A stretch of 44,029 nt of DNA from positions 434,195 to 478,223 of the forward strand of contig JAWMAR010000934.1 in NCBI GenBank assembly GCA_036785375.1, written 5' to 3'. The stretch is from Leucoraja ocellata (Eukaryota). Positions 14,601-20,600 of this stretch are shown here, piece after piece (position 1 is the first letter of the stretch; every line of letters begins with the position of its first letter). The notes beneath the pieces were generated by a model that saw nothing but the letters and a program-made list of their open reading frames with translations, had not been told where the DNA came from and searched no databases. The translations under genes were made by a program, and so were the position numbers.

Positions 14601-17600
14601 ACCGAGATGAGAAGAACTTTTTTCACACAGAGAGTGGTGAATCTCTGGAACTCTCTGCCACAGAGGGTAGTTGAGGCCAGTTCATTGGCTATATTTAAGA
14701 GGGAGTTAGATGTGGCCCTTGTGGCTAAAGGGATCAGGGGGTATGGAGAAAAGACAGGTACGGGATACTGAGTTGGATGATCAGCCATGATCATATTGAA
14801 TGGCGGTGCAGGCTCGAAGGGCCGAATGGCCTACTCCTGCACCTAATTTCTATGTTTCTATGATTAGGCCATTCGGCCCATCAAGTCTGCTCCGACATTC
14901 AATCATGGCTGATCCATCTCTCCCTCCCAACCCCATTCTCCTGCCTTCTCCCCATAACCCCTGACACCCGCACTCATCAACAATCTATCTATCTCTGCCT
15001 TAAATATATCCACTGACTTGTGGCCTCCACCGCCGTCTGTGTGGCAACGAATCCCACAGATTCACCACCCTCTGATTAAATAAATTTCTCCTCATCTCTT
15101 TCCTATAAGCACGTCCTTTAAATCTGAGGCTGTGACCTCTAGTCCTGGACCTCCCACTAGTGGAAACATCCTCTCCACATCCACTCTATCCAGCTTGAAA
15201 CAAGCCCTTCGGCCCAACTTGCCCACACCGGCCAACATGTCCCAGCTACACTAGTCCCACCCCGACCAACATGCCCCAGCTACACTAGTCCCACCCCGAC
15301 CAACATGCCCCATCTACACTAGTCCCACCCCGACCAACATGCCCCATCTACACTAGTCCCACCCCGACCAACATGCCCCATCTACACTAGTCCCACCCCG
15401 ACCAACATGCCCCATCTACACTAGTCCCACCCCGACCAACATGCCCCATCTACACTAGTCCCACCCGGACCAACATGCCCCATCTACACTAGTCCCACCC
15501 CGACCAACATGCCCCATCTACACTAGTCCCACCCCGACCAACATGCCCCGTCTACACTAGTCCCACCCCGACCAACATGCCCCGTCTACACTAGTCCCAC
15601 CCCGACCAACATGCCCCATCTACACTAGTCCCACCCCGACCAACATGCCCCATCTACACTAGTCCCACCCCGACCTTTTAGGACCGAGATGAGAAAAAAA
15701 AATGTTTTCCGACACAGAGAGTGGTGAATCTGTGGAATTCTCTGCCATAGAAGGTAGTTGAGGCAACAGTTCATTGGCTATATTTAAGAGGGAGTTAGAT
15801 GTGGCTAAAGGGATCAGGGGGTATGGAGAGAAGACAGGGATGGGATACTGAGTTGGATGATCAGCCATGATCATATTGAATGGCGAATGGTGCAGGCTCG
15901 AAGGGCCGAATGGCCTCTACTCCTGCACCTATTTTCTATGTTTCTATGTTCCCGATTTTGGGGGAGTCCAGAACCAGGGGCCACATGCAGTTTAAGAATA
16001 AGGGGGGTCAGCCATTTAGAACGGAGACGAGGAGAAACTTTTTCCACCCAGAGAGTTGTGAATTTGTGGCCATTTAGGACTGAGATGAGGAGAAACTTTT
16101 CCACCCAGAGAGTTGTGTGAATCTGTGGCCATTTAGGACTGAGATGAGGAGAAACCTTTCCCACCCAGAGAGTTGTGTGAATCTGTGGCCATTTGGGACT
16201 GAGATGAGGAGAAACTTTTCCACCCAGAGAGTTGTGTGAATCTGTGGCCATTTAGGACTGAGATGAGGAGAAACCTTTCCACCCAGAGAGTTGTGAGTCT
16301 GCGGAATTCTGTTCCACATTCCACATCTGTTCCAGATGTTGGGGGAGGCCAGAACCAGGGGCCACACACACAGTTTTAGAATAAAGGGGTCGGCCGAAGG
16401 GCCGAATGGCCTACTCCTGCACCTAATTTCTATGTTTCTATGTATAACTGCATGCTGCACCTGCATGCCTACTTTCAATGAATGGTGTACCATGACACCC
16501 AGGTCTCGTTGCATCTACCCTTTTCCTGACAACATAGAAACATATAAACATAGAAATTAGGTGCAGGAGTAGGCCATTCGGCCCTTCGAGCCTGCACCGC
16601 CATTCAATATGATCATGGCTGATCATCCAACTCAGTATCCCGTACCTGTCTTTTCTCCATACCCCCTGATCCCTTTAGCCACAAGGGCCACATCTAACTC
16701 CCTCTTAAATATAGCCAATGAACTGGCCTCAACTACCCTCTGTGGCAGAGAGTTCCAGAGATTCACCACTCTCTGTGTGAAAAAAGTTCTTCTCATCTCG
16801 GTTTTAAAGGATTTCCCCCTTATCCTTAAGCTGTGACCCCTTGTCCTGGACTTCCCCAACATCGGGAACAATCTTCCTGCATCTAGCCTGTCCAACCCCT
16901 TAAGAATTTTGTAAATTTCTATAAGATCCCCTCTCAATCTTCTAAATTCTAGCGTGTACAAGCCGAGTCTATCCAGTCTTTCTTCATAAGACAGTCCTGA
17001 CATCCCAGGAATCAGTCTGGTGAACCGTCTCTGCACTCCCTCTATGGCAATAATGTCCGTCCTCAGATTTTGAGACCAAAACTGTACGCAATACTCCAGG
17101 TGTGGTCTCACCAAGACCCTGTACAACTGCAGTAGAACCTCCCTGCTCCTAGACTCAAATCCTTTTGCTATGAAAGCTAACATACCATTCGCTTTCTTCA
17201 CTGCCTGCTGCACCTGCATGCCTACCTTCAATGACTGGTGTACCATGACACCCAGGTCTCGCTGCATCTCCCCCTTTTCCCAATCGGCCACCACATCGTG
17301 ACAACAAACCAAACTGAGCCACTTACCAAGCGAGAGGGTCAGGGCTTCATCGAGGCTGACGTGAGCCACAAGGCAGCTGAAAGTGTCCCCGCGTTGGGGC
17401 TCGATGCGGATGTACTTCAGGATGTTGAAGGTCCAGTCTCTCTCGACCAGCAGTGGGGACGAGTGTACGGGGCCGGTGAAGGGTTGGCCGTTGACCAGGA
17501 ACTGGAGCTCAATCTCGAAAGGGTAGAACCTCTCAGCGAAACAGTACAGGGTGTTGGCTCTCTGCAGGACGTAGTCCTCTTCTGTGTAGATGTGGACGAT

Positions 17601-20600
17601 CGGTTTCTCTGCAACAAGAGGTGAGACTTTAACAAGAGGAATCGAATATAGGAGCAAAGAGGTCCTTCTGCAGTTGTACAGGGCCCTAGTGAGACCGCAC
17701 CTGGAGTATTGTGTGCAGTTTTCGCCTGTTGGCCTTCATAACAAGAGGAGTTGAGTATAGGAGCACAAAGGTCCTTCTGCAGTTGTACAGAGCCCTAGTG
17801 AGACCACACCTGGAGTATTGTGTGCAGTTTTGGCCTGTTGGCCTTCATAACAAGAGGAGTTGAGTACAGGAGCAAAGAAGTCCTTCTGCAGTTGTACAGG
17901 GCCCTAGTGAGACCACATCTGGAGTATTGTGTGCAGTTGTGGTCCCCTAATTTGAGGCAGGACATTCGTGCTACTGAGGGAGCCAGCGTAGGATCACCAG
18001 GTTAATTCCTGGGATGGCGGGACCGTCATATGCTGAGAGAATGGAGCGGCTGGGCTTGTACACTTTGTGGAGTTTAGAAGGATGAGAGGAGATCTCATTG
18101 AAACACATAAGATTGTTAAGGGCTTGGACACGCTAGAGGCAGGAAACATGTTCCCGATGTTGGGGGAGTCCAGAACCAGGGGCCACACACACAGTTAAAG
18201 AATAAGGAGTAAGTCATTCAGAATGGAGACGAGGAAACACTTTTTCTCACAGAGAGTGGTGAGTCTGTGGAATTCTCTGCCTCAGAGGGCGGTGGAGGCC
18301 GGTTCTCTGGATGCTTTCAAGAGAGAGCTAGATAGTGCTCTTAAAGATAGGGGAGTCAGGGGATATGGGGAGAAGGCGGGAACATGTTTCCTGCCTCTAG
18401 CGTGTCCAAGCCGTTAACAATCTTATATGTTTCAATAAGATATCCTCTCATCCTTCTAAACACCAGAGTGTACAAGCCCAGCCGCTCCACATTCTCTCAG
18501 CATATGACAGTCCCGCCATCCCGGGAATTAACCTGGTGAACCTATGCTGGGCTCCCTCAATAGCAAGAATGTCCTTCCTCAAATTAGGGGAGCAAAACTG
18601 AACACAATACTCCAGGTGTGGTCTCACCAGGGCCCTGTACAACTGCAGAAGGACCTTTTTGCTCCTGTACTCAACTCCTCTTGTTATGAAGGCCAACAGG
18701 CCGAAACTGCACACAATACTCCAGGTGTGGTCTCACTAGGGCCCTGTACAACTACAGAAGGATGTCTTTGCTCCTGTACTCAACTTGTCTTGTTATGAAG
18801 GCCAACTGGCCAAAACTGCACACAATACTCCAGGTGTGGTCTCACTAGGAATTTGTGCAACTGCAGAAGGACATCTTTGCTCCTATATTCGATTCCTCTT
18901 GTTATGAAGGCCAACATATAACCATATAACCATTACAGCACGGAAACAGGCCATCTCGACCCTTCTAGTCCGTGCCGAACACATAATCTCCCCTAGTCCC
19001 ATATACCTGCGCTCAGACCATAACCCTCCATTCCCTTCCCATCCATATAACTATCCAATTTATTTTTAAATGATAAAAACGAACCTGCCTCCACCACCTT
19101 CACTGGAAGCTCATCCCACACAGCTACAACTCTCTGAGTAAAGAAGTTCCCCCTCATGTTACCCCTAAACTTCAATCCCTTAATTCTCAAGTCATGTCCC
19201 CTTGTTTGAATCTTCCCTACTCTCAGTGGGAAAAGCTTTTCCACGTCAACTCTGTCTATCCCTCTCATCATTTTAAAAACCTCTATCAAGTCCCCCCTTA
19301 ACCTTCTGCGCTCCAAAGAATAAAGCCCTAACTTGTTCAACCTTTCTCTGTAACTTAGTTGCTGAAACCCAGGCAACATTCTAGTAAATCTCCTCTGTAC
19401 TCTCTCAACATGCCATTGGCTTTCTTCACTGCCTGCTGTACCTGCATGCTTACTTTCATAGACTGATGTACAAGGACCCCCCAGATCTCCTTTTCCCAAC
19501 ATGACGCCATTTAGATAGATGCTGCCTCACCCGCCGAGTTGCTCCAGCACTGTTTGTCTACATTCCTTTGGTTTATTTATGATTCATTCGCAAAAAGAGG
19601 CCTCCAATTTCCTCGCACGCCCACTTACTGCTGCCGATGGGTTGGTTGTCGTTGCCGGCTGCCAGCTCACTCATGTCGCTCCGGATTTGGTTCTGAAACC
19701 CCTCGGCCCTCTGCACAAAGTAGGTCACCTCCGCCTCGCCCAGCTCCTCCCTCCCGTCCGTGGCCTGGCCGTTGATGGAGAAGGCGCGCGCCTCGTGGTC
19801 GTAGGCGAGGAAGGGCACAGAGTTCACGCTGAGGATGTCCAGAGTCTTCTCTGAGCCTGACGTGCTCCGCCCGTAGACGAAATGCTCGGACACCGTCTCG
19901 ATCTCTGGTGGGGGGGGGGGGGGCGAGAGAATGTTGGAGAAGAGAATCGATAATGTTAGTCAAGTCAAAAGTGCTGGGGAAACTCAGCGGGTGAGGCAGC
20001 ATCTATGGAGCAAAGGACCCCTCATTTGCAGTTGAACAGAACACTAGTGAGACCACACCTGGAGTATTGTGTGCAGTTTTGGCCTGTTGGCCTTCATAAC
20101 AAGAGGAGTTGAGTAAAGGGGCAAAGAGGTCCTTCTGCAGTTATACAGAGCCCTAGTGAGACCACACCTGGAGTATTGTGTGCAGTTTTGGCCTGTTGGC
20201 CTTCAAAACAAGAGAAGTCGAGTATAGGAGAAAAGAGGTCCGTCTGCAGTTGTACAGGGCCCTGGTGAGACCACACCTGGAGTATTGTGTGCAGTTTTGG
20301 CCTGTTGGCCTTCAAAACAAGAAGAGTCGAGTATAGGAGCAAAGCGGTCCTTCTGCAGTTGTACAGGGCCCTGGTGAGACCACACCTGGAGTATTGTGTG
20401 CAGTTTTGGCCTGTTGGCCTTCAAAACAAGAAGAGTCGAGTATAGGAGCAAAGCGGTCCTTCTGCAGTTGTGCAGGGCCCTAGTGAGACCACACCTGGAG
20501 TATTGTGTGCAGTTTTGGTCCCCTAATTTGAGGAAGGACATTCTTGCTATTGAGGGAGCCCAGCGTAGGTTCACCAGGTTAATTCCCGGGATGGCGGGAC

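Follow-up and report, generated by a model that had tools for sequence, protein, structure and literature searches.

A B2M-like alpha2 exon in a skate W-category WA gene and its likely head-to-head WB partner

A stretch of 44,029 nucleotides from Leucoraja ocellata (contig JAWMAR010000934.1; at its full length, the window) holds on its minus strand, at 17327-17608, an exon for a C1-set domain with residues of beta2-microglobulin (B2M), set among exons of the kind that make up the class II alpha chains of the MHC (major histocompatibility complex). The question raised by this locus is whether such a domain belongs to a tethered form of B2M, to a divergent class II gene or to something already described. 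Judged from its sequence, the exon is part of an already known gene of the W-category, a DS5-like WA, for which a near-identical little-skate sequence was published in 2021: the row 'little skate WA DS5 like 01' in Dataset S2 of Okamura et al. 2021 (PNAS; PMC8713811) shows 2 differences in 94 residues. Our reading, to which we give a probability of about 0.88, is that the exon encodes the membrane-proximal alpha2 domain of an intact skate WA, which likely pairs with the WB gene lying head to head with it (WB2) as a nonclassical MHC molecule of class II shape, predicted to sit at the cell surface. Statements on PMC8713811 refer to its main text and to the available parts of its Datasets S1 to S3; the other literature comprised PMC8812513 and parts of PMC10751288 and PMC8236899.

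The alpha2 exon and the WA gene around it

The gene was assembled from the following exons, for which P0001 is a protein of Leucoraja erinacea.

21611-21671, minus strand: WA leader exon (ATG at 21671; hydrophobic, phase-1 GT donor; sequence the same in P0001)
19629-19904, minus strand: WA alpha1 exon (276 nt, AG/GT; 99% to P0001)
17327-17608, minus strand: WA (DS5-like) alpha2 exon, C1-set and B2M-like (AG/GT, phase 1-1, Pfam C1-set)
13428-13539, minus strand: WA connecting peptide/transmembrane (TM) exon (C-x-x-G-x-x-x-G-x-x-G, compared with Dataset S3 rows)
11618-11687, minus strand: WA cytoplasmic exon with the stop codon (from tblastn of P0001; in frame)

Spliced together, the five exons give 266 amino acids with zero internal stops, and alpha2 is exon 3. 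It is 282 nt long, with the acceptor ...TTGCAG, the donor GTAAGT and phase 1 at both ends, and over 93 complete codons it matches Pfam C1-set with an E value of 3.8e-17. The original prediction, made from the letters of the window alone, had placed an alpha1 exon before this domain and a class II alpha-type TM exon after it, and both could be located. The gene thus has the class II alpha plan of leader, alpha1, C1-set alpha2 and connecting peptide/TM/cytoplasmic exons, together with the TM glycines, and would be read as an intact gene for a type I membrane protein. A Pfam search of alpha1 gave nothing significant, including no MHC_II_alpha match, and no N-glycosylation sequon was found in the WA ectodomain; WB2 has three. 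A pseudogene or artefact was ruled out by the intact open reading frame (ORF), the canonical splice sites and the presence of orthologs in sharks and rays alike. A reverse transcriptase ORF fragment sits immediately after the donor of alpha2.

The diagnostic residues were then read codon by codon. The same prediction had aligned the exon by eye with B2M and named Tyr10, Leu54, Trp60 and Phe62 as kept, the C-strand Trp as missing and Phe56 as replaced by Val, all of which is borne out. The Tyr10 equivalent is at 17588-17586, Leu54 at 17453-17451, Trp60 (TGG) at 17435-17433 and Phe62 at 17429-17427, with the two Cys codons at 17543-17541 and 17375-17373. Phe (TTC, 17501-17499) takes the place of the C-strand Trp, and Val (17447-17445) that of Phe56. 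A further replacement, which the prediction did not mention, is that of Asp53 by Pro (17456-17454). The register against B2M is reproduced both by HMMER and by the alignment in the published dataset, in whose WA alpha2 numbering Trp61 corresponds to B2M Trp60. By that numbering the exon has the WA-type residues Tyr8, Leu55 and Trp61, with Phe, of the alternatives Phe/Leu, at 37, and only the typical, though not universal, Phe/Tyr57 is lacking, Val standing there instead.

Comparison with relatives places the gene within the DS5-like group. Its first four exons are identical to P0001 at 240/243 residues (77% to Rhinoraja), alpha2 by itself at 91/93, and alpha1 matches the Dataset S1 row 'little skate DS5 like' with about 2 differences; to four other elasmobranch WA proteins the spliced ORF is 52-77% identical. 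We built a maximum-likelihood tree from 35 C1 domains (the window's three, 28 DS5-type, 2 DS10-type and 2 from WB2 orthologs; P0031 and P0032 were left out). In it the window alpha2 is joined first by Leucoraja (100/90) and next by Rhinoraja (100/98) among the DS5-type domains, and stands apart from the WB beta2 rows (94/86). Against the published little-skate WA the exon plan, the diagnostic residues, Val57 and the head-to-head WB are all the same, with differences at the allele or species level only. The other WA lineages (DS10-like, Nds3L, teleost, lungfish and salamander) share the architecture, and nearly all their rows have Trp61, but position 57 is still Phe or Tyr in most of them, where the DS5 lineage has Val. 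Since 7 of the 8 published DS5-like WA rows available have Val at this position and the remaining one Ile, the authors evidently file Val57 sequences as WA.

Much of what this locus suggests at first sight is therefore already in print. Okamura et al. (PMC8713811) defined the W-category by a B2M-like alpha2 within a class II-type alpha chain, described its genes as head-to-head WA/WB pairs and put forward the model in which B2M derives from a WA alpha2 exon; Verissimo et al. 2023 found the W-type genes of elasmobranchs to be multicopy, syntenic and outside the MHC. Thus both the object and its evolutionary interpretation precede this analysis. When the original prediction took the exon as fitting a descent of B2M from such an alpha2 exon, it was right about a B2M-like alpha2 in a chain with a class II-type TM segment, but that model dates from 2021 and the locus adds no new evidence to it: the WA gene of the window is a present-day relation of B2M and not the gene from which B2M arose. 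No better intermediate between MHC class II and class I is available at present than the W-category genes, a significance established in 2021, and the function of W molecules was still called an open question by Kaufman in 2022. The window's own addition is small: all the exons of a skate DS5-like WA are mapped, together with an intact Nds5L-like WB head to head with it. Such genes are easily rediscovered as new, because the databases name WA relatives 'class II-like' or 'class I-like'.

How close the domain stands to B2M

It is the diagnostic residues alone that separate B2M from class II for the window alpha2; overall identity and fold do not. The case for kinship with B2M is made by shared derived characters, namely the lack of Trp37 together with Trp61, Tyr8 and Leu55. 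Trp37, the invariant C-strand Trp of class II alpha2, is present in 8/8 class II alpha2 rows seen in the published datasets. Among the database proteins that we tabulated (29 named of 30 returned, 28 of DS5 type and one of DS10 type), all 29 retain Tyr10, Trp60 and Phe62 and lack the C-strand Trp. With B2M the domain has in common the C1-set fold, Tyr10, Leu54, Trp60, Phe62 and the missing C-strand Trp. It differs from a single soluble C1 domain in having alpha1 before it and a TM segment and tail after it, all in frame, in the replacements of Phe56 and Asp53, and in its predicted partner, a beta chain of two domains in place of a class I heavy chain.

Several points weigh against our reading, and to them should be added the steps concerning partner choice, receptor role and relaxation that are taken up below. 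By eye, alpha2 is identical to little skate B2M at 29/91 positions (about 32%) and to nurse shark class II alpha2 at 31/94, and a search with the single exon gave HLA-DP beta2 at 62.6 bits. An AlphaFold model from 27 aligned sequences (mean predicted local distance difference test score, pLDDT, 95.4; all-beta C1 topology), which replaced a poor first model at pLDDT 66.8 that was set aside, ties B2M with HLA-DP alpha2 and DP beta2 (Z 16.0-16.4, root-mean-square deviation 1.1, 92-93 residues). Only two of the four residues in the B2M interface set Tyr10/Asp53/Phe56/Trp60, all four of which have been shown to be important for class I assembly, are kept. Lastly, the grouping of WA alpha2 with B2M is taken from published Fig. 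7, as the text of PMC8713811 describes it. Foldseek likewise interleaves B2M and class II matches of the model, and the fold was rejected as an arbiter between the two.

The profile search proposed in the original prediction proved similarly two-sided. With a profile built from 27 sequences, mouse B2M scored 77.8 bits and the class I alpha3 domain of the same chain 37.6 bits; class II beta chains scored higher, at 85-89 bits, with two domains each. Since multi-domain fusion constructs dominate the sequence matches in the PDB, ranking by whole chains is no fair comparison of domains. To call the domain a membrane-anchored beta2-microglobulin-like one, as had been done, overstates the case, the identity being no higher than to class II alpha2 and the fold being tied.

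We considered on this evidence whether the gene is simply a conventional class II alpha gene that has diverged and come to its B2M-like residues by convergence. It shares with such genes the plan of leader, alpha1, alpha2, TM segment and tail, the TM glycines and the head-to-head A/B arrangement, its relatives carry 'class II-like' names in the databases, and its identity is as high to shark class II alpha2 as to B2M. However, it lacks the C-strand Trp of class II alpha2 and has Trp60 and Leu54, its partner has Gly61 and not the class II Trp61 in beta2, and its alpha1 has diverged beyond the reach of the Pfam class II alpha model. Together with the 98% identity to a published WA and the published tree as described, which largely refutes it, this leaves convergence a most improbable account. 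We hold just as little by another course, in which a B2M duplicate secondarily gained alpha1 and TM exons, class I having come first. The derived residues common to WA and B2M would suit it, and the authors call both directions logically possible, but they also state that the topology of WA alpha2, B2M and class II alpha2 is incompatible with it (PMC8713811); the class II-type TM pattern and gene pairing, and the fact that skates have a B2M of their own, tell against it as well. A W-category WA therefore remains the preferred identity of the gene.

The likely partner and a predicted complex

Two WB genes lie in the window, one on either side of WA.

23285-23357, plus strand: WB2 (Nds5L-like) leader exon (80% to Amblyraja P0006)
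25177-25446, plus strand: WB2 beta1 exon (position 6, the Gln96 position, is His; Gly32, Gly35, and Thr37 at the Asp122 position; Nds5L by eye against Dataset S1)
26848-27117, plus strand: WB2 beta2 exon (Pfam C1-set, E 7.1e-17; Pro57, Gly61; resembles the WB Nds5L rows of Dataset S2)
28957-29070, plus strand: WB2 TM exon
29961-29990, about 31750-31848 and about 32824-32852, plus strand: WB2 cytoplasmic exons
3189-5858, plus strand: WB1, a DS1-like beta chain (leader 3189-3261, beta1 4495-4752, beta2 5122-5406, TM 5754-5858)
610-736, minus strand: orphan leader exon, likely of a second WA gene (hydrophobic ORF, phase-1 GT donor)

WB2 stands head to head with WA, with 1614 bp between the two ATGs, and has the residues of head-to-head WB chains, Pro57 and Gly61 in beta2 and, of the alternatives Ala/Gly32 with Gly35, both glycines in beta1; a Pfam search of its beta1 gave nothing significant. 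WB1 has Gln at beta1 position 6, and its domains match the little skate WB DS1-like rows of Datasets S1 and S2. In both WB genes beta2 carries Pro57 and Gly61, which are of class I type, the invariant Trp61 of class II being absent. Skate WB2 was not among the skate rows found in the available parts of Datasets S1 and S2; NCBI has orthologs from Amblyraja and Rhinoraja.

A complex prediction of alpha2 with the window's alpha1, beta1 and beta2 scored 0.48 against 0.03 for the best control, which is rated as weak support. Of 78 solved complexes, 51 came up to the mark for such scores, as did 2 of 108 mismatched pairs, and passing scores at or below 0.60 comprised only 5 of the 78 solved complexes and all 4 passing mismatches among 180. 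Contacts agreed between runs to at least 89% and the partner pLDDT was at least 76; the prediction was run on sequences without alignments and returned scores without contacts. Because MHC complexes have been solved many times, the pass may reflect likeness. Moreover, the score is indifferent to which WB binds and does not discriminate between family members.

The choice of WB2 over WB1 is a matter of gene orientation and of lineage naming in the datasets, from which it appears likely. That WA might instead pair with WB1, or with either WB, rather than with WB2 specifically has in its favour that WB1 lies about 5.8 kb from the 3' end of WA, keeps Gln6, Pro57 and Gly61, and cannot be told from WB2 in the complex test. 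But WB1 lies tail to tail with WA and has a head-to-head leader of its own at 736-610, 2453 bp separating the ATGs, and this orphan leader, from its position, likely belongs to a second WA gene that extends, over N gaps, beyond the window's left end. The published pairs are head to head, and in the salamander WA maturation was unsupported by a mismatched fish WB (PMC8713811). We thus consider pairing with WB1, or with either WB, very unlikely and proceed with WB2.

If so, the pair might work as follows. By analogy with class I structures and with the salamander WA/WB experiments, in which the two chains matured and arrived at the surface only when together (PMC8713811), alpha1 and beta1 would form the MHC platform, and alpha2 would lie beneath it at the place that B2M takes in class I, its Trp60 inserting into the pleat of the sheet. 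Tyr10 would bond to Pro57 of beta2, the glycine faces of the TM segments would pack, and both chains would be required for maturation and surface export. Such a molecule would probably not present peptides in the classical way but act, with low polymorphism, as the ligand of a lymphocyte or innate receptor; this nonclassical role is suggested, less firmly than the pairing, by the W subgroups described in PMC8713811 as lacking complete peptide-anchoring sets or high polymorphism.

Phe56-to-Val and the partner's His

The original prediction had suggested that the change of Phe56 to Val may be compensated in WB2, which has His at the Gln96 position. The His itself is present (CAC, 25191-25193); it precedes the beta1 Cys by five residues and is in the register of Gln96 of HLA-A2. 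The change to Val, on the sequences compared, is a trait of the DS5 lineage and not peculiar to the window gene. Position 57, which is Val in seven and Ile in one of the eight DS5-like rows mentioned above, has 25 Val, 1 Ile and 3 Phe among the 29 tabulated proteins, one Phe being that of the DS10-type protein, so that Val occurs in 25 of the 28 DS5-type proteins. The two DS5-type paralogs with Phe57, P0010 (Heptranchias) and P0029 (Heterodontus), each stand in the tree beside a Val paralog of the same species.

A specific compensation would mean that His6 of WB2 beta1 fills the space left by Phe56, knob and pocket having co-evolved as an alternative pair. In class I, Gln96 contacts both Phe56 and Trp60 (PMC8713811). 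His6 is found in WB2 of the window, Amblyraja and Rhinoraja and in 3/4 Nds5L rows; Gln6 occurs in 12/12 complete DS1 and DS3 rows, whose likely WA partners have Phe57 in 8/10 DS10 and Nds3L rows. However, Val and His are inherited together in a single lineage, which makes their co-occurrence effectively one event, and the exceptions run in both directions. Catshark '159K' rows combine Val57 with Val6, if their row tags are a guide to pairing; in coelacanth and lungfish, position 6 of WB is Leu or Phe, yet WA still has Phe57; two DS5-type paralogs have Phe57, as noted; and His6 is seen in 5/7 DM-beta rows and in two salmon nonclassical class II beta rows. The alpha1 residues 8 and 10 also line the pleat, and are His and Val here against Phe and Thr in HLA-A. 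His, for its part, is not enough larger than Gln to replace a phenyl ring, which also counts against the idea. The proposed swap is thus not upheld, and we regard it as unlikely.

Another way to view the interface is to consider its altered residues together. The other hydrogen-bond partner of Trp60 in class I is Asp122, and its equivalent in WB2 (Asp37) is Thr, as it is in 3/4 published Nds5L rows; like the Pro at Asp53, this had escaped the original prediction. The class I interface residues altered in the WA/WB2 pair of the window are therefore four, not two, and in the DS5 lineage the class I-type interface is partly eroded, with Phe56 replaced by Val, Asp53 by Pro, Gln96 by His and Asp122 by Thr. 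An interface that has loosened or been remodelled in general agrees with these observations no less well than a single Val/His swap. The likeliest cause of such erosion would be relaxation, since an alpha2 tethered by alpha1 and a TM segment need not be held by the knob alone.

It is also conceivable, though we doubt it, that in sharks and rays the DS5/Nds5L pair co-evolved as a second answer to the interface between B2M and heavy chain, in which Trp60 was kept throughout and Phe56, Asp53, Gln96 and Asp122 were replaced together. If true, the pair would serve as an experiment of nature, bearing on the class I contacts that a membrane-tethered domain still requires and on what had to be fixed before B2M became a free subunit. 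In the main text of PMC8713811, the SI Appendix aside, DS5, Nds5, V57 and valine have 0 matches, the residues being visible in the datasets, and our literature searches, whose scope was papers outside subscription, returned neither a structure paper on the W-category nor a paper on the Val/His pair. WA and WB2 of the window, with the list of interface substitutions, could be taken up at once, as a pair, in the structural and functional studies that the field lacks.

Around these genes, exons of WDR45/WIPI4 lie beyond the W cluster at 41.25-42.95 kb on the plus strand, where the stretch 41377-41451 matches WIPI4 (E 4.3e-12); this is a non-MHC neighbour, which agrees with the location of elasmobranch W genes outside the MHC. 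Reverse transcriptase ORF fragments, presumably LINE-type, crowd the introns and the intergenic DNA of the window (for example 13704-14771, 27365-28234 and 35105-36004). In P0008 and P0031 (Cetorhinus) and P0017 (Carcharodon), NCBI isoforms fuse a DS10-type alpha1-alpha2 to DS5-type exons and a TM segment, giving alpha chains of three or four domains that may reflect read-through splicing between tandem WA genes or artefacts of annotation. P0028 and P0029, which carry 'beta-2-microglobulin' names in the databases, are WA models that stop right after alpha2, before any TM segment; they are probably truncated models, a soluble WA splice form being a conceivable alternative.

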